The translations under genes and the position numbers were made by a program. The notes under the pieces were generated by a model, which was not told the DNA's origin, did no database searches, and saw only the letters and a list, made by a program, of their open reading frames with translations. This document shows, one piece after another, positions 41,604 through 50,454 of a stretch of DNA of 64,000 nucleotides. This DNA is from an uncultured Acidobacteriota bacterium (GTDB taxonomy: Bacteria > Acidobacteriota > UBA6911): the NCBI GenBank assembly GCA_963809485.1, contig CAWEJX010000020.1, positions 736,001 through 800,000 on the forward strand, written 5' to 3'. Within the stretch, counting starts at the first letter, position 1. Each line of letters begins with the position of its first letter.

Positions 41604-43943
41604 ATGTACAGAAGAAACGAGGTCCTTGAATATCATGGCTCCGAGCCGAAAGGCAAGATCGAGATTTCGGCCGCCAAACCGCTTATTACTCCCAGAGACC
41701 TGAGTATGGCCTACTTTCCAGGTGTTGCTGAGATTTCCCACATTGTTGCGGAAAAGCCGGACGCTGTCTACGACTATTCCTCCAAGGAAAACCTGATTGC
41801 CGTTGTCACCAATGGCTCTCGCGTGATCGGCCTCGGGAATATCGGCGCACTCGCCGCCAAGGCAGTGATGGAAGGAAAATCTCTTTTGTTCAAACGCTTC
41901 GCGAATATAAACGCGATTGACCTCGAGGTAAATACTCAGGATCCGCAGGAATTTGTGAACGTTGTTGCCAATCTTGAGCCGACTTTCGGAGGCATCAGCC
42001 TGGAGGCGATCCGCTCGCCCGATTGTTTCTACATCGAGCAGGAACTGGCCAGGCGCATGTCGATACCGGTTTTCCATGATGACCAATATGGAACCGCGGT
42101 CATTGTCTGCGCAGCTTTGATCAATGCCCTCATTCTTCAAAAAAAGGCGATCGAGGACCTCAGAATCGTGATCTCCGGAGCCGGCGCAAGCGGCCTGGCA
42201 ACGGCAAGACTGCTGCTGGCTCTGGGCGCGAGGAGGGAAGAGATCTTGATGGCCGATTCAGCGGGAGTTCTGTATGAGGGCCGTCGCGAGAACATGAATC
42301 CGTACAAGGAGCAGTTCTCAGTCAAAACAGACCGCCGGACGCTCGCCGAGGCGCTGAAGGGAAGCGACTGCTTTATCGGATGCTCTGTGGGAGGGGTCGT
42401 CTCGAGAAACATGCTTATCGACATGCGTGAGAGACCCGTTATTTTTTCTCTGGCAGGGCCCGATCCCGAAATATCCTATTCCCTGGCAAAGGAAGTACGC
42501 CCCGACGCAATTGTCGGAACGCGGCACGCGGAATGGCCGAACGAATTTACCAATGTACTTTGCTCTCCGTACGTTCTTCGGGGCGCGCTGGACACGCGAT
42601 GCAAAGCCATCCACCCGGGGCTTTTGCTTGCCGCTGCCGCGGAACTCGCCGCAATCGCGCGCGAAGGAGGGCCGCCTGACGTTGTACACGGCGCCCTTCG
42701 GGAAAATTACCAGTTTGGGCCTGAATACATCATTCCAAAACCATTTGACACGAGGCTTGCAGAGCGGATTTCAGAGGCTGTGGCGAAAGCCGCTGTGGAA
42801 TCGCAAGTTGCGCGGGTTCGCCTGGATTTCCCGAAATACCGCACCCGATTAGGCAATTTCTTCGGCAAGTCCAACACGGTGATGCAGCAATTTATTACGC
42901 AGGCGCAGAAAAAAGTCATGCGCATTGCATTTCCGGAAGGAGAGACGCAAACGATCCTTCGTGCCTGCCAGGCAATCGTAGACAATGGGATCGCGCAGCC
43001 TGTGTTGCTCGGCTCGCCGCAGAAGATAAGGAATTTGATCAAACAGCACAATCTGGATCTTCTCGAAAAAGTGGAAATCATCGATCCGTCGGATCCGCCC
43101 AGCTTCGAAATCTACTGCCGGGAAATTTACGAGCTGAGAAAGCGTAAGGGGCTGACACTCCAGGATACGCGGGATTTTCTGAGGAATCTCAACTGCCTTG
43201 GGATGGCAATGCTCCGCCATGGCGACGTCGATGGCGTTATATCGGGCCAGACGACGCACTATCCCGAAACCATTCGCCCTGCACTCACTCTTATAGGGAT
43301 TCGGGAAGGCGTAAGGCTGGCGACGAGCATGTATATGGTCATCCTGAAAAACAAGGCGAAGTTTTTCGCGGACACAACTATCAACATCACTCCAGACGCT
43401 GAAGACATCGCTGAGATCGCGATCGTGACCGCGGACGCAGTTCGCAGATTGGGCGTCATCCCCAGAATCGCGCTTCTCAGCTTTTCAAATTTTGGATCCT
43501 CGAAGCATCCGCTTGCCGCAAGGGTGGCCAGGGCAGCCGATATCGTGAAGAAGCGCCGGCCGGATCTTGAAGCAGACGGCGAGATTCAGGCGGACGTGGC
43601 GCTAGATGCGGATCAGATCCGGGAACTTTATCCTTTTTGCCGGCTGACGCGCGAGGCGAATACGCTGATTTTCCCCGATCTCGGCTCAGCCAATATCGCC
43701 TACAAACTCATGGGGCGAATCGGTTCCGCTACCATTGTCGGCCCCATCCTGCTGGGCTTGCGGAAACCGGTCGGCGTTCTGCAACGATCGTGCTCCGTGG
43801 AATCCGTCGTGAACAATACCGCCGTCGTCTGCGTGAAAGCGCAGGGGCTGTTCGAACGGGAGGCGGAACCGGAAAAGGAATTTCACCTGACCGATTCCCC
43901 TGACCGAACCCCCGTGATCCGGAGTCCCGAGCCCGCGCTATGA
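41604..43943 (+). CDS. maeB: MaeB-type malic enzyme / phosphotransacetylase-domain fusion with several active-site substitutions
   Basis: GLGNIG, MEGK..LFK.FA, FHDDQ.GTA and GAGA motifs; PTA domain FPEGE, LSFSNFGS, DGE.QAD and NIAYKL. Confidence 0.9.
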   Translation: MYRRNEVLEYHGSEPKGKIEISAAKPLITPRDLSMAYFPGVAEISHIVAEKPDAVYDYSSKENLIAVVTNGSRVIGLGNIGALAAKAVMEGKSLLFKRFANINAIDLEVNTQDPQEFVNVVANLEPTFGGISLEAIRSPDCFYIEQELARRMSIPVFHDDQYGTAVIVCAALINALILQKKAIEDLRIVISGAGASGLATARLLLALGARREEILMADSAGVLYEGRRENMNPYKEQFSVKTDRRTLAEALKGSDCFIGCSVGGVVSRNMLIDMRERPVIFSLAGPDPEISYSLAKEVRPDAIVGTRHAEWPNEFTNVLCSPYVLRGALDTRCKAIHPGLLLAAAAELAAIAREGGPPDVVHGALRENYQFGPEYIIPKPFDTRLAERISEAVAKAAVESQVARVRLDFPKYRTRLGNFFGKSNTVMQQFITQAQKKVMRIAFPEGETQTILRACQAIVDNGIAQPVLLGSPQKIRNLIKQHNLDLLEKVEIIDPSDPPSFEIYCREIYELRKRKGLTLQDTRDFLRNLNCLGMAMLRHGDVDGVISGQTTHYPETIRPALTLIGIREGVRLATSMYMVILKNKAKFFADTTINITPDAEDIAEIAIVTADAVRRLGVIPRIALLSFSNFGSSKHPLAARVARAADIVKKRRPDLEADGEIQADVALDADQIRELYPFCRLTREANTLIFPDLGSANIAYKLMGRIGSATIVGPILLGLRKPVGVLQRSCSVESVVNNTAVVCVKAQGLFEREAEPEKEFHLTDSPDRTPVIRSPEPAL

Positions 43944-44997: not shown

Positions 44998-45094
44998 ACC
45001 TCTCAGATCTGATTGCGCGGAAGATTTTTGGGCATCCTGGGAGCCTGTCCGAGAAGAAAATATCATCCCGACATTGCCAACGGCTCGAGGCGCC

Positions 45095-45239
45095 TGGCCT
45101 CGGCGATCCAGCCACCATACCAGGACGACATCAATCTCACGGCTGCGCGCCTCGGTGAGAAGTTTTTCCCGGCATGCGCGCTGGGAAGAGCCCGAGTCGA
45201 TGAATTTCACCTGGGTAACGACCTGCCAGCCCCGGCGCG
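45095..45239 (-). pseudogene. serine recombinase/resolvase fragment
   Basis: RRGWQVVTQVKFIDSGSSQRACREKLLTEARSREIDVVLVWWLDRRG (decayed LDR.GR motif). Confidence 0.7.
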
Positions 45240-45242
45240 TGG

Positions 45243-45385
45243 GTACGATTCCCGAAGCGAACAGTCCCGTCCGCTCATCGGGGCTCAGCTGCGCGCGGTG
45301 CGCCGCCGCCAGCGCCAGGACCTTCATGCTCGTGTCGTCGTTATAAAAAACCTCTCCCTGTGCCGCCTGGCGGATCAGTTCGTCG
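45243..45385 (-). pseudogene. IS66-family transposase fragment
   Basis: ELIRQAAQGEVFYNDDTSMKVL...ERTGLFASGIV (manual translation). Confidence 0.6.
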
Positions 45386-45535
45386 AAAGCTGGACGTATC
45401 CCCCTGCGGTTTCAGCGACAATCCACCACTGCCACGGGAGTACCTGCATTTGACGTACAACACCGCCGGAAGATCGCGAACAATCGGTTCCCAATTGTCT
45501 TCCTGAAAAGCCGGGGCTGGTTGCGCCTGGTCCTC

Positions 45536-45925
45536 CTAATAGACAGGCATATCCATGCCCTGATGTTCATGAACTCTGCCGGCGATCTGGACTTCAATCT
45601 CCGCCATACCTGGAATCATCATTTTTGACAGGTAATATTGATCTCCGACCTTGCGGAATCCAACAGTGGCATCTTTCAGCCGTGTTTGCGAACTCGCAGC
45701 GGAGCTGATCTGTGCCATCGCTATTGCCGACATTTTATTCATGCCGACCACTGCAATGCTTCTGCCATCGTTTGACCTGATGAAACGGTATTCCCCGGCC
45801 GGCAGCTGTTTGCCGGAAACGGTAAAGGCAAACGGTACGTCTGCCCGTATTCTCTTTTGCGCGAAGGCGGCAGATGCCGACAACAATGTCACAAGGCAAA
45901 GCGACACGAGAACTTTCATTCTCAT
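45536..45925 (-). CDS. small secreted beta-rich protein (Acidobacteria-type)
   Basis: Signal peptide ending AFA; ADVPFAFTVSGKQLPAGEY and F.KVGDQYYLS. Confidence 0.8.
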   Translation of the reverse strand: MRMKVLVSLCLVTLLSASAAFAQKRIRADVPFAFTVSGKQLPAGEYRFIRSNDGRSIAVVGMNKMSAIAMAQISSAASSQTRLKDATVGFRKVGDQYYLSKMMIPGMAEIEVQIAGRVHEHQGMDMPVY

Positions 45926-46385
45926 TTTAGGCCTCCTCTCCTCATCGATTCATATTCCCTTCCGTTTTTCCAAAATCCACACTGGTCACAAATTTAAATA
46001 TAGTATTTTGAAATGAAATTTCAATATTGATCTATACAATTGCTCCCTTAAGAAAATAGACAGGAAAGGTTGGGTTATCAGAATGGAAGGCCGAGGTGCG
46101 GGTCGCCATAAACCCATAACGCCATAGATTCAATTACTTAACGGCTATCATTGGATCCTTGGCTGTGTTGCGGAAACCGTTCGAAGGATTTAAAAGAAGT
46201 GGCGGAGAGGGGGGAGATTCGGCTGGAGCCGATTGGGCGAATCTGTTGGTGGGCATCGACTTATCGATAATATTCATTGTTCGCAATTAGTTGCGCCGTT
46301 TTCCCATAGTTTCCAGGAGTTTCCGCAGTTTCTCCTAAAGCCTCTATTTCCACGAGAAATGGTATCACTGGTATCACCGCTCAGG

Positions 46386-46553
46386 AGCTTATGGGTCGTT
46401 CAAGCGCGTTTTTTGCCTTTTGTCGTCCGGGCCTCTGATAAAGAGTGATATGTAAACTGAATAAAACTCCAGAAACTCAATTTGCATATCAGGCAAAAAT
46501 CATTTTATGCGTGAAAGAGTCGGGAAGGAAACAGAAATAGGAGATTCGCCTTA
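46386..46553 (+). repeat. direct repeat A (about 165 bp)
   Basis: Matches 49816-50076, which has an extra ~90-bp insert. Confidence 0.85.
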
Positions 46554-46555
46554 AG

Positions 46556-46626
46556 AAGACTTCCCCCATGCCCCCCTTGCCCAACCGGTCGGTGACTTCG
46601 TAATGGGCGAGTGTTTTCCCGATCAT
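46556..46626 (-). pseudogene. truncated Ser/Thr protein kinase (N-terminus only)
   Basis: MIGKTLAHYEVTDRLGKGGMGEV with GGAGG RBS, cut at direct repeat A. Confidence 0.8.
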
Positions 46627-47031
46627 GCTCCCACCTCCCTCTCAAGCGCTCGAAATGAGTGTTCGAGGACGCCTTAAGCCCAAGTGATCTAAGCGAAAAA
46701 CCGGACGCTAGGGAGCGGGCGTCCGCTCCCCATCCAAGGCAGGCAACGAATGAGGATAGGCTAATGATCGGCCCGCGATGTGGGGGTTGCAAGCAAAATG
46801 TCGATGCCTTGATATGATCAAAAAAGTTAGGCATCCCAGGAACCAGCTATTGGGGCACACTTCCATCTTCCGGTCCGAAAAGTCCCTGAGTGAGAAATAA
46901 CTTGCTTGCCCATATCCAATGCCGCAAGGTGAAGAGGCGATAGCCCAGGATGGCAGGCCGAGCTACTTTGAGATTCTATTGGCCCCCTTGGCAGATAAAT
47001 GGTCGCAGAAAAGCGCATCCCGCCGATCCGG

Positions 47032-47523
47032 TTATTGGCGTTCAAATACCACGACGTTGTTGATCCGTTGACCTTGAGCGTTCGTACCTTTGCTTGTGAA
47101 CGTCATGGTCTTTCCGTCTTTGGAAATCGTTGCGGTATATGAAATAGCGGTCGCCTTCCCATCTGCCTTCAGAATCACCTCTTCCGTGTATGCATTGACA
47201 AGCCTCACCGAAAGCGATTGTGGTACTTTTGCTCCCAGCACAAAATGTGGGTAATCTTTTCCGTCACGCTTGAACGCATCTTGCTCGAACGTCCGATTCC
47301 CCTGGGCGTCAATCCCCTCGCTAGTCCGAAGTATCACTCCGCCTCCCCGATCTTCGAATGTCCACGTAGAACTCCTCGGCGCCGGACCGGGATCGAACTT
47401 CGACTTGGCCGGGTTTGCCTTCCATGTCCCGAAAAAGGGATCAGCGGTTTGCGACAAGGTGAACAGCGACGTGACGACTACAAAAAGCAAGCTCAACATC
47501 AGGCACCTCACAATCCTTCCCAT
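47032..47523 (-). CDS. secreted lipocalin-like beta-barrel protein
   Basis: Signal peptide; DPFFGTWKANPAKS, DGKDY and S.DGKTMT motifs; AGGAG RBS. Confidence 0.8.
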   Translation of the reverse strand: MGRIVRCLMLSLLFVVVTSLFTLSQTADPFFGTWKANPAKSKFDPGPAPRSSTWTFEDRGGGVILRTSEGIDAQGNRTFEQDAFKRDGKDYPHFVLGAKVPQSLSVRLVNAYTEEVILKADGKATAISYTATISKDGKTMTFTSKGTNAQGQRINNVVVFERQ

Positions 47524-48223
47524 CTTAGTTCTCCTTTCCTAAGCGAAAGTGCTAGGCCGGCCCGCGGTTTGTCGGCCTAGTGACCGGCAATTGATCTTCT
47601 GGCGGTGCCGCTGCTTTCTTGGATCGAGGCTTGGCTAGCCTCCTTAAGCAATAGCCGCGCTTGGTTTGCCTAATGGCGCGGAAAGCGGAACATGGGAAAG
47701 GAACTGGGGCAATATGGAGTCGCTGCTTGTTCTGGTTACTGTATGTGTAATGCAATATTCTTATCGCAAACTCAAGCTACAGTCAACAATTAGCAGGTGT
47801 CAGTCCACATTTTTGAGTGCCGCAATCACCCGACAGCAGTCCTGCAGCAATTTCTGGAGATAACGTCGCTCCTCGAGGGCAACTTTGAATACCTGCCGTG
47901 CTTTGTCACGGCCTTCCGGATCCACCCAATTCCTTCCTGGTTCTTCGGTCCAGTCGAAATGAAATGATAGGCAATTGCTTTTGCACCCAGGTTGACCGAC
48001 TGCTTCTCTCTCTGCGGCCGTAGCGATAGCATTAAATCGGGGTGGCGACACACGATTGCTGCACATTTTCATACTATTATTTCTTAATAGGCCCTGTGAT
48101 CGTTAAATCTATTTTGAACAAGAGGATTTTCTGTTACAAAAATTATGCAAATAATATAAGAGGGATCTGAAATAACCATAGGAGATAGATGGTGTAAATG
48201 GATAAGAAAGCAAGGATTCAGCC

Positions 48224-48520: not shown

Positions 48521-48793
48521 GCCACACGGCTGAGCTCGCTAAGGCCAATCCATTCCACTATTAACCGAGCTGCAGAAGAATGCCGCGGAAGTGAAGTAAG
48601 GAGCCGTTCCATGTGCTCCGCAAAAAATACTGCAGGTGCCAATTGCCGACCCCTGAAGCTTCATGCAGCGGTTTTAACGATTTGATATTCATGATGTAAC
48701 CTGCCCAAGACAGGTTTGGATGCACAAAAAACAATCACGCTGGCCCGGCTTTTACAGATGGACAAGAAATTGCCTGTTCGTTAGGAAAGGATC

Positions 48794-49567
48794 ATGATTA
48801 TGAGATACGAAACAGTTCTTATGGAAAAAATCGATGGCATTGCCGTCATCACCTTAAATCGCCCCGATAAGCTCAACGCTGTCAATAAGCAAATGAGATC
48901 CGAAGTTCTCGGTCTGCTGGACGAGGTGGAATCGGACGATGGGGTGCGTGTGCTGGTTTTCACTGGAAGCGGTCGCGGATTCTGTGCGGGGGCCGATATC
49001 AGTGAATTCGAAGGGGTCGGGAAGGATCCTCAACTCGAAAGCGGGCGCAGCGGAGACCTGCTCCTGATGCCCAAACGCATTTTCGGGTTTGAAAAACCGA
49101 TCATCGGGGCCATCAATGGAGTGGCAGCGGGAGACGGCGCGCAATGGGTATTGGCCTTTGATTTGAATGTGGCTTCGGAAAGAGCGCGGTTTGGCTGGCC
49201 TGCCACAGGTTTGGGAATCCTCTGACCGTATGGGATCATTAGGCTTCCGGTGGAAGTCGGACGTTTTCGGGCTAAAGAAGTCTTAATGACACGTAAGTTC
49301 CTCAGCGCCCGGGAGGCCTTTGACTGGGGGTTCCTGGCCAAAGTGGTCGCTCCCGAAAAGCTAATGGAGGAGACTCTCGCTCTGGCCGAAGAGATCAAGA
49401 AAATGCCTCCCCTGTCGATCAAGGCGGTCAAACAGGCGGTGAACATGGGTATGGGGGGTTACGAGTATGCCCAGCAGGTGATGATCAATTTGCAGAAGAC
49501 CCAAGATGCCAAAGAAGGCGCCAGGGCATTCATGGAGAAGCGGGAGCCACGATTTGAGGGAAGATAG
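48794..49567 (+). CDS. enoyl-CoA hydratase/crotonase-fold protein with in-frame UGA (predicted selenocysteine at 49223-49225)
   Basis: ITLNRPDKLNA, FTGSGRGFCAGAD, KPIIGAING, then GLGIL-TGA-PYGIIRLP continuing in frame to AFMEKREPRFEGR; SECIS-like hairpin at 49242-49258. Confidence 0.8.
49242..49258 (+). promoter_or_regulatory. candidate bacterial SECIS element
   Basis: GGCTTCC-GGT-GGAAGTC stem-loop with a G-first apical loop 23 nt after the UGA. Confidence 0.6.
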
Positions 49568-49815
49568 CCAAAATGGCTGCTGCATAGAAATCCCACCGGA
49601 TCAAACCAGGCAAGGCTTCGCTCTTGATATCCCGCTAAGAAGCAGGGATGGTGAAGCTGGAAGGCAGGGATCCAGGATGGCTCGTGCATAGGCTTCAATA
49701 GCCGGCTCACTTCTTCGGGAAACTCCCAGCCAAAGGGCTCGTCGAGAAAATCCCGAGGTCCCTTCGATATCCTCTCCTCACGCAATCCGGTCAAGAGACC
49801 AAATGCTCGTATTGC

Positions 49816-50076
49816 AGCTTATAGGTCGTTCAAGCGCGTTTTTTGCCTTTTGTCGTCCGAGGCTTTGATAAGGAAAAGGGATCCTTCAGAAGCCGCGCAA
49901 CAAGCGATAACGTTTTACTAACAAAATGCTGTTTGGGCGGTTTCTAAAAGATTTTCTTGAAAAAGTGATATGTAAACTGAAAAAAACTCCAGAAACTCAA
50001 TTTGCAAATCAGGCAAAAATCACTTTATGCGTGAAAGAGTCGGAAAGGAAACAGAAATAGGCCGGGCTTCGCCTTA
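49816..50076 (+). repeat. direct repeat B
   Basis: Matches 46386-46553 with a ~90-bp insertion at about 49872-49963. Confidence 0.85.
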
Positions 50077-50313
50077 GGCCAACCAGCAGAATTTATTAAT
50101 TGATGTAGTGTTCCGTATCGCTTTCCAATACTGCAGATGCTCTGAAGAAGGTAGACGAATTTCATTTTCTTCTCATCTCCATATTTAACGAAGCAGAGGG
50201 GAAATGAGTCAACATTTCCTCGATATGGTAGCTGATGGCAGGAAGTTTTGAATAACCGAGGTTGGAGGGAGTTACAGTCCGCCTTCGCCTTCGCTTCGCT
50301 CGGCTACGGCGGA

Positions 50314-50363
50314 CAGCCTTCGCTAAAGCTCCGGCTTGCCAGCCGAAGCTTTAGCGAAGGCTG
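50314..50363. repeat. tRNA-adjacent palindrome
   Basis: CAGCCTTCGCTAAAGCTCCGGCT...AGCCGAAGCTTTAGCGAAGGCTG. Confidence 0.75.
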
Positions 50364-50454
50364 GCGGAGAGGGGGGGATTCGAACCCCCGACACCGGTTT
50401 TGCCAGTGTAACTGCTTAGCAGGCAGCCCTGTTCGGCCACTCCAGCACCTCTCC
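50362..50454 (-). tRNA. tRNA-Ser(GCT)
   Basis: GGAGAGG acceptor stem, anticodon loop CT-GCT-AA, long variable arm, GGTTCGAATCC T-arm, encoded GCCA end. Confidence 0.96.

Follow-up and report, generated by a model that had tools for sequence, protein, structure and literature searches.

A probable selenocysteine-containing crotonase with a remodelled active site from an uncultured Acidobacteriota bacterium

Introduction

Does the in-frame TGA that divides a crotonase-like gene of an uncultured Acidobacteriota bacterium end the protein, or does it specify selenocysteine (Sec), and what would a Sec residue do in such an enzyme? The gene lies within a stretch of 64,000 nucleotides (nt), positions 736,001 to 800,000 of contig CAWEJX010000020.1 (assembly GCA_963809485.1), which is referred to below as the window and to which coordinates refer unless another contig or locus is named. 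The original prediction, made from the letters of the window alone, had joined two adjoining open reading frames (ORFs) into one selenoprotein gene, followed by a hairpin resembling a selenocysteine insertion sequence (SECIS), and had proposed that Sec takes the place of the two catalytic glutamates of enoyl-coenzyme A (CoA) hydratase. Based upon the comparison of this gene with its relatives, we consider it very probable that it encodes a real selenoprotein and that it belongs to a new Sec/Cys subfamily of crotonases with a remodelled active site, whose reaction we can propose only tentatively.

The interrupted reading frame

The features of the gene that are central to this question are as follows.

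48794..49567, plus strand: crotonase-superfamily gene, very probably of a selenoprotein; 257 amino acids (aa), more likely 255 aa from the ATG at 48800; the match to ECH_1 is full-length
48800..48802, plus strand: probable true start codon, ATG
49223..49225, plus strand: UGA, the predicted codon of Sec144
49242..49258, plus strand: putative bacterial SECIS core, with a 7-bp stem (49242-49248 with 49252-49258, one G-U pair) and the loop GGU at 49249-49251

The ORFs at 49250-49567 and 48794-49225, both on the plus strand, share a single frame, and its inspection bore out the claim that the TGA at 49223-49225 is the sole interruption. The read-through product of 257 aa, terminated by the TAG at 49565-49567, is of normal length for a crotonase, as had also been claimed, and its residues 14-256 match positions 4-250 of the 251 positions in the Pfam profile ECH_1 (PF00378) with an expectation value (E) of 6e-50. 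The true start is probably the ATG at 48800 rather than that at 48794, because the sequence AAGGA (48787-48791) is found 8 nt 5' of the former, the N-termini of the homologues read M-x-Y-x-T, and a T>G change at 48795 in the related contigs X1 and X4 destroys the first ATG. Residues are numbered here from the ATG at 48794, which gives Sec144; with a start at 48800 this residue becomes Sec142.

Distribution of TGA and cysteine codons among relatives

Related sequences were obtained by scanning metagenomes with an alignment of the C-terminal part of the protein, which yielded 80 loci. A scan of genomes with a full-length alignment picked up generic crotonase motifs and returned only crotonases of 33-40% identity, which were uninformative for the subfamily. 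In the 80 metagenomic loci the Sec column is occupied by TGA (51 loci), TGC (20) or TGT (9) and by nothing else, TAA and TAG included, and the frames are open upstream where the contig permits and for 113-117 codons downstream of the column. The 51 loci with TGA (58-79% identity) show amino-acid conservation downstream of it. Among the members of the subfamily in protein databases (55-69% identity), the column is covered by 69, of which 68 have Cys and one has Ala, and 35 additional gene calls, mostly of 141 aa, terminate exactly ahead of it. Most of the more distant crotonases have the canonical Pro at this position. The TGA or Cys that was looked for in homologues was thus present in every metagenomic locus and, as Cys, in all but one of the spanning proteins.

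These observations bear directly upon the possibility that translation really ends at the TGA, in which case the gene would be a pseudogene or encode only an N-terminal fragment of 143 aa. Although the gene callers and the NCBI annotation do end the relatives at 141 aa, and other genes of the window use TGA as an ordinary stop, this explanation is very improbable, as it has to account for TGA at a single column in 51 loci, never exchanged for TAA or TAG, for the intact and conserved frame that follows it in all of them, for Cys at the same column in the remaining loci, and for a hairpin (see below) that is conserved only in the TGA forms.

The subsequent comparisons were based upon sets of unique sequences, which comprised 62 members (38 Sec and 24 Cys forms) for the residue counts and the phylogenetic tree, 41 Sec and 25 Cys forms for codon entropy, and 43 Sec and 23 Cys forms for hairpin pairing. 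In the tree of 62 members, whose root is uncertain with its long outgroup branches, the Sec and Cys forms are interleaved, with at least six switches between them, four of which are forced by supported branches. Outside the genus, the gene is most closely related to that of a metagenome contig (L121), with 79% identity in the C-terminal part. In the phylum, 400 further genomes were sampled, and none yielded a member of the subfamily at an E of 1e-60, only the best candidates per genome being scored. The subfamily appears to be rare among species representatives, which has no bearing upon its function, and it occurs mostly in metagenomes of anoxic-type habitats; close relatives are present in communities of the bioreactor, wetland or sediment type.

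Conservation of the downstream hairpin

A hairpin with a G-first loop had been placed 23 nt downstream of the UGA, and it is present there. The consensus for bacterial SECIS elements specifies a loop of 3-9 nt, a stem of 4-16 bp, a G within the first two loop positions, a spacing of 16-37 nt and a minimum free energy (MFE) of at most -7.5 (PMC13188914). The hairpin of the window agrees with this model in its 3-nt loop GGU (G first, then G or U), its 7-bp stem (7-9 bp within the family) and its UGA-to-loop distance of 23 nt; its MFE is -7.3 kcal/mol bare and -8.7 kcal/mol with the flanking bases.

Comparative evidence concerning this element comes from synonymous codon usage. In the 41 unique Sec forms the normalised synonymous entropy has a mean of 0.86 over 72 conserved degenerate codons, none of which is at or below 0.1, and the four lowest-entropy sites are codons of the stem, viz. 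Leu CTT (41/41), Pro CCG (41/41), Glu GAA (39/41) and Val GTC (38/41); the same four codons vary in the 25 unique Cys forms. Likewise, exclusively CGR or AGR codons are used for Arg+6 in the Sec forms, so that a pair is formed between the third base and the U of GUC, whereas CGC is used in 15 of the 25 Cys forms. At least six of the seven core pairs are formed in 43/43 unique Sec forms versus 9/23 Cys forms, and a G opens the loop in all 43 of the former, where it is followed by G or U, versus only one of the 23 latter. The element also constrains the protein sequence, since the CCG codon of Pro152 supplies the conserved loop G: this residue is Pro in 38/38 Sec forms, in which it is fixed, versus 9/24 Cys forms, which have P, A, T or S. 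Judged by its conservation at the level of RNA, which is confined to the TGA forms, the hairpin behaves as a SECIS element would.

One Cys form (L174) retains the full hairpin, including a GGT loop, 60 nt past its TGC codon, which is expected after a recent switch from Sec to Cys.

Decoding of the UGA

The genome that contains the window (G000) encodes the machinery for Sec insertion, with selA (565 bits), selB (391 bits), selD (346 bits) and tRNA-Sec (70.6 bits) all scoring over their curated cut-offs, so that each of selA, selB, selC and selD was found when the genome was checked for them. The selD gene (G000:C8, locus L010 near base 1530) has one in-frame TGA at the classic site, followed by a 7-bp stem with a GGC loop 21 nt past its UGA, a design that it shares with the crotonase gene. 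The window holds no sel genes, as had been noted at the outset; selB (G000:C20:730205-732088) is located about 4 kb ahead of its first position. The genes for SelB and tRNA-Sec are also present in G006, the only other species genome that carries the crotonase gene.

In the mechanism that we envisage, the ribosome would decode the UGA at 49223-49225 as Sec, with the hairpin at 49242-49258 serving as the bacterial SECIS to which SelB, loaded with Sec-tRNA-Sec, binds, and the product would be a full-length enzyme of the crotonase fold, of about 255 aa. It is alternatively conceivable that the UGA is decoded as a residue other than Sec, through an alternative genetic code or by near-cognate Trp or Cys insertion, or that two polypeptides are made, the second from the GTG at 49250, where an ORF of 105 aa does begin. 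The likelihood of any of these is very low. The start of the downstream ORF lies inside the hairpin and varies among relatives (ORF length 93-105 aa), the Sec machinery of the genome is complete, and the loop G and the spacing match SelB-type elements; an alternative code is excluded because gltX, pdxJ, maeB-pta and a methylase gene within the window terminate in TGA and have no internal stops. A sequencing or assembly error, for which no supporting point was found, is extremely improbable, since the same TGA is present in the 98% identical orthologue of G006, a separate assembly, and contigs of three independent studies have a TGA and hairpin identical to those of the window and differ from it at other sites.

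Some points weigh against the reading of this gene as a selenoprotein. The bare MFE of the hairpin just misses the model limit and is borderline in this copy (relatives carry 9-bp stems), the fold of the surrounding 60 nt is no better than that of shuffled sequences (z +0.63; equalled by 140 of 200 shuffles), and over 49150-49350 no Rfam family was found at E up to 10, there being just two chance matches, to a microRNA and a snoRNA family. Because the fold of this single copy is not significant, the case for a SECIS element is carried by the comparative data. Additionally, no RNA run among those listed held the gene, and Sec insertion at this UGA is inferred from sequence.

Fold and active site

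Pfam matches of the read-through protein are limited to PF00378 and PF16113. It scores below every curated cut-off of NCBIfam, which has no model for this subfamily, and it is therefore a divergent crotonase. An AlphaFold model based upon 22 sequences predicts the crotonase fold with a predicted local distance difference test (pLDDT) score of 75, and a Foldseek search with this model retrieved crotonase structures at template modelling (TM) scores of 0.82-0.86, all of them generic crotonases. Two segments, F63-C-A-G-A-D68 and G113-D-G115, align with the canonical oxyanion-hole motifs FxAGxD and GxG, and by this alignment their backbone NH groups would form the oxyanion hole. In the HMMER alignment to PDB entry 5zai, GGGLE is matched by GDGAQ and PEI by PAT, and the position of the canonical loop Pro is taken by the TGA column; this confirms both that the two catalytic Glu positions read GDGAQ and PA in this protein and that the UGA is situated in the active-site loop. 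The altered positions are these.

49133..49135, plus strand: GAC codon of Asp114, the second oxyanion-hole position (canonical GGG changed to GDG)
49142..49144, plus strand: CAA codon of Gln117, which replaces the first catalytic Glu of enoyl-CoA hydratase
49202..49204, plus strand: GCC codon of Ala137, which replaces the second catalytic Glu of enoyl-CoA hydratase

Gln117, Ala137, Tyr146, Arg150 and Glu154 are invariant in all 62 unique sequences of the family, whose loop motif is G-I-L-U/C-P-Y-G, and Cys64, beside the oxyanion hole, is kept in 38/38 Sec forms. The column of Asp114 is acidic in 58 of the 62 (37/38 Sec and 21/24 Cys forms), with G, K or A in the others. The idea that Sec, possibly together with the Asp of AGDG, replaces the Glu pair thus stands in part: both Glu residues are replaced, but a Sec/Asp114 pair is not established because Asp114 is not invariant.

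Assignment of the protein as an enoyl-CoA hydratase proper (EC 4.2.1.17) was rejected, as both catalytic Glu residues are gone in every family sequence. The closest structures are nevertheless those of enoyl-CoA hydratases and 3-hydroxypropionyl-CoA dehydratase (5zai, 2pbp/2qq3 and PaaG 6sl9), with which the protein shares the fold (TM about 0.85; phmmer E 3e-46), the FxAGAD and GxG oxyanion motifs and the C-terminal helices. It differs from them in Gln117/Ala137 in place of the Glu pair, in Sec or Cys in place of the loop Pro, and in a loop that is shorter by one residue. A chemistry other than hydration is a reasonable inference from these replacements, and we propose that Sec/Cys144 acts as the catalytic residue upon an acyl-CoA whose thioester would be held in the conserved oxyanion hole. 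The identity of the gene as that of a selenoprotein and this catalytic role of its Sec residue are, taken together, highly likely.

More distant groups of crotonases (P0093/P0096 and P0116) likewise have Gln at the position of the first Glu and Cys at the Sec column, with the motifs GDGFQ...GALCHV and AAGCQ...GLFCTTP. These groups hint at a wider clade of Cys-dependent crotonases beyond the subfamily.

Gene neighbourhoods and possible reactions

The neighbourhoods of the gene in its relatives were surveyed in 25 non-redundant loci with 130 flanking ORFs, and the context was found to be mixed. A B12-dependent acyl-CoA mutase is encoded near the gene in five of these loci (L145/L152, L176, L181, L200 and L130). 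In all of these except L130, genes for MeaB and for the large and small subunits of a methylmalonyl-CoA-mutase-type enzyme are directly upstream on the same strand, with an intergenic gap to the upstream mutase/MeaB genes of 6 nt in L145 and L200. Around the mutase-linked loci, genes for a corrinoid adenosyltransferase, an MmdA-type carboxyltransferase, CoA-transferases and a PrpD-family protein are also found; acyl-CoA dehydrogenases, NMO-family flavoproteins and acyl-CoA ligases are encoded nearby in other loci. In L176 an ORF directly 5' of the Sec crotonase (L176:4875-5423, plus strand) is DUF2284-like and resembles a domain of the selenoproteins ArsM/DUF2284 and MbdU.

We tentatively suggest, with appreciably less than even confidence, that the enzyme is a decarboxylase or epimerase of 2-carboxyacyl-CoA of the methylmalonyl-CoA type. 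It would process the product of a B12-dependent acyl-CoA mutase, as ScpB (YgfG) acts after the mutase in E. coli, and Sec/Cys144, placed at or beside the position of Tyr140 in ScpB, would donate or abstract the C2 proton of the enolate. The gene order retrieved for E. coli, scpA-argK-scpB-scpC, places scpB behind genes for the mutase and a MeaB-type GTPase, similar to the position of the crotonase gene in L145, L176, L181 and L200. The two proteins share the crotonase fold, and the second catalytic Glu is missing in ScpB as well. In the alignment, Tyr140 of ScpB falls either on the Sec column or one residue ahead of it, and Tyr140 and Sec144 are each 30 residues past the oxyanion position (Gly110 in ScpB, Asp114 here). 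His66, Tyr140 and Gly110 are functional residues of methylmalonyl-CoA decarboxylase, and their numbering was confirmed. The proteins differ in that ScpB, with 29% identity, keeps Glu at the first Glu position where the present family has Gln, and in that the gene of the window is not beside a mutase gene. No VOC/glyoxalase-type epimerase was found in the ORFs scanned at L145, L181 and L200, the small ORFs and the DNA beyond these loci being outside the scan, and its absence is only a weak hint as regards an epimerase role.

The active-site loop itself has precedents. Asp145 of 4-chlorobenzoyl-CoA dehalogenase and Asp204 of dienoyl-CoA isomerase, which are catalytic residues, lie in the same loop about 31 residues past the oxyanion Gly, and this loop is thus already known to serve as an alternative site of catalysis in the superfamily; the residue is Asp in those enzymes and Sec or Cys here.

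A number of observations count against the decarboxylase/epimerase proposal. There is no mutase in 20 of the 25 loci, thiol-redox genes are as frequent among the neighbours as the mutase, and some neighbours are plain housekeeping genes (aspS, tig and clpP). The gene of the window stands alone among small ORFs without a Pfam match, adjoining tRNA-Ser and gltX. The Sec loop is the weakest part of the AlphaFold model (pLDDT about 52 at residues 141-160). Selenoenzymes are not known to employ Sec purely as an acid/base. An orthologous relationship to ScpB was considered and rejected, as Ala67 stands in place of His66 of ScpB and its Tyr140 is not retained as such.

A serious alternative, although less likely than not, is that Sec144 is a nucleophile or redox centre instead of an acid/base and that it becomes linked covalently, through Se-C or Se-S, to an acyl-CoA or to CoA. 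This intermediate would be a Michael adduct, a selenoether or a selenenyl-sulfide, to be resolved by a thiol, with a thioredoxin or CoA-disulfide-reductase system re-reducing the enzyme. Sec is normally selected for such chemistry. Most selenoprotein families are described as redox proteins in the current catalogue (PMC13188914). Among the neighbours, Pyr_redox_2 is found in five of the 130 flanking ORFs, equal to the mutase. In L187/L191 a thioredoxin reductase gene (TIGR01292, 367 bits, over the cut-off) follows the Cys-form gene at a distance of 44 nt and in the same orientation, and another is nearby in L181 and L198; this adjacency may be due to chance, however, because thioredoxin reductase is a housekeeping gene. 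In L161, L163, L165 and L167 the Sec form is beside a Sec-containing gene resembling CoA-disulfide reductase and a gene for a C_GCAxxG_C_C (seleno)protein, but the former is convergent rather than co-oriented. The conservation of Cys64 next to the oxyanion hole in the Sec forms favours this role, although ordinary crotonases, too, often have the Cys of FCAGAD. The CoA-disulfide-reductase-like flavoprotein of L163 (L163:6485-7990, minus strand) is itself a selenoprotein and reads ...VSYAA-U-PMPYY....

An unlikely extension of the nucleophile or redox role is that Sec144, as a covalent catalyst, gives the crotonase fold a reaction class not known for it. The oxyanion hole would here stabilise the enolate of the acyl-CoA, the selenolate would make and break a bond from Se to C or S, and the cycle would be completed by a thiol together with a thioredoxin or CoA-disulfide-reductase system. 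Examples of such reactions would be the reductive loss of an alpha or beta substituent, as in glycine reductase, and the handling of CoA persulfides or disulfides. If this were true, it would be the first selenium-dependent step of acyl-CoA metabolism.

Genomic context in the window

The region between the gene and the conserved genes that follow it contains the following features.

49960..50390, unstranded: short dispersed repeats that make up the DNA separating the gene from the tRNA, with many partial matches in G000 and in genomes of the same genus
50362..50454, minus strand: tRNA-Ser(GCU), conserved beside the gene and delimiting the variable stretch in which it is situated; context rather than part of the gene

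A core of the repeats (about 50314-50364, beside tRNA-Ser) matches both strands and is therefore palindromic; further dispersed repeats are present at about 46190-46640 and 47640-47790. While tRNA-Ser and gltX are adjacent in most of the genus genomes compared, DNA of the crotonase gene was detected in only two of 30 of them (G000 and G006), and the G006 copy is on a different contig from gltX. The gene had been described as cargo of a possibly mobile tRNA-Ser islet. Its accessory nature and the repeat-rich, variable stretch beside tRNA-Ser-gltX agree with this description; evidence of mobility in the form of an integrase or transposase match was not obtained among the flanking ORFs scanned, nor was any Pfam match for the small ORFs at 45013-47523 and 49459-49794. 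Upstream, a fusion of malic-enzyme and phosphotransacetylase domains of the MaeB type (41604-43943, plus strand) is apparently unrelated.

Relation to catalogued selenoproteins and significance

The crotonase superfamily is a standard example of divergent enzyme evolution. Like established bacterial selenoproteins such as SelD, the gene described here has an in-frame UGA, Cys-containing homologues, UGA-bearing orthologues elsewhere and a G-first hairpin 21-23 nt downstream; unlike them, it specifies an acyl-CoA enzyme that has neither a thioredoxin-like fold nor a UxxC/CxxU motif. Most characterised selenoproteins combine a thioredoxin-like fold with a redox motif (PMC13188914), and among the 119 selenoprotein families in Table 1 of the same catalogue there is none of PF00378. 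The only label in it that contains the word crotonase belongs to a DsbA-like family (PF01323, motif DxxUP; PMC13188914), an entry that PMC9312934 names as well. This family, "DsbA-like protein form 2", was considered and set aside, as it shares with the present proteins only the annotation words "crotonase/enoyl-CoA hydratase" and differs in its Pfam family (PF01323 as against PF00378/PF16113) and in its motif (DxxUP as against GILUP, with Asp rather than Gly three residues before Sec); the two are distinguished on the basis of these descriptions. No Sec-containing crotonase was mentioned in the full-text literature searched or in the passages of the deep-Sep and BSepDB papers that were consulted; more families may be listed in supplementary tables, and an earlier mention is possible. 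This kind of selenoprotein is not listed in the current catalogues, as far as these could be read.

If the reading of this gene is correct, it would add a selenoprotein family to those catalogued (PMC13188914), one in which Sec occupies the loop of an acyl-CoA enzyme and replaces its Glu pair, and the crotonase superfamily would gain a new catalytic residue. Public annotation currently cuts these genes in half, with about 35 clusters of gene calls of 141 aa, and some of the truncated halves bear the NCBI label "enoyl-CoA hydratase/isomerase family protein"; the whole enzyme is therefore missed in metabolic reconstructions of anaerobic communities. As natural Cys versions exist, the chemistry would be directly testable without the technology for selenium insertion, and the link to operons of B12-dependent mutases would provide a concrete first set of substrates for such tests.

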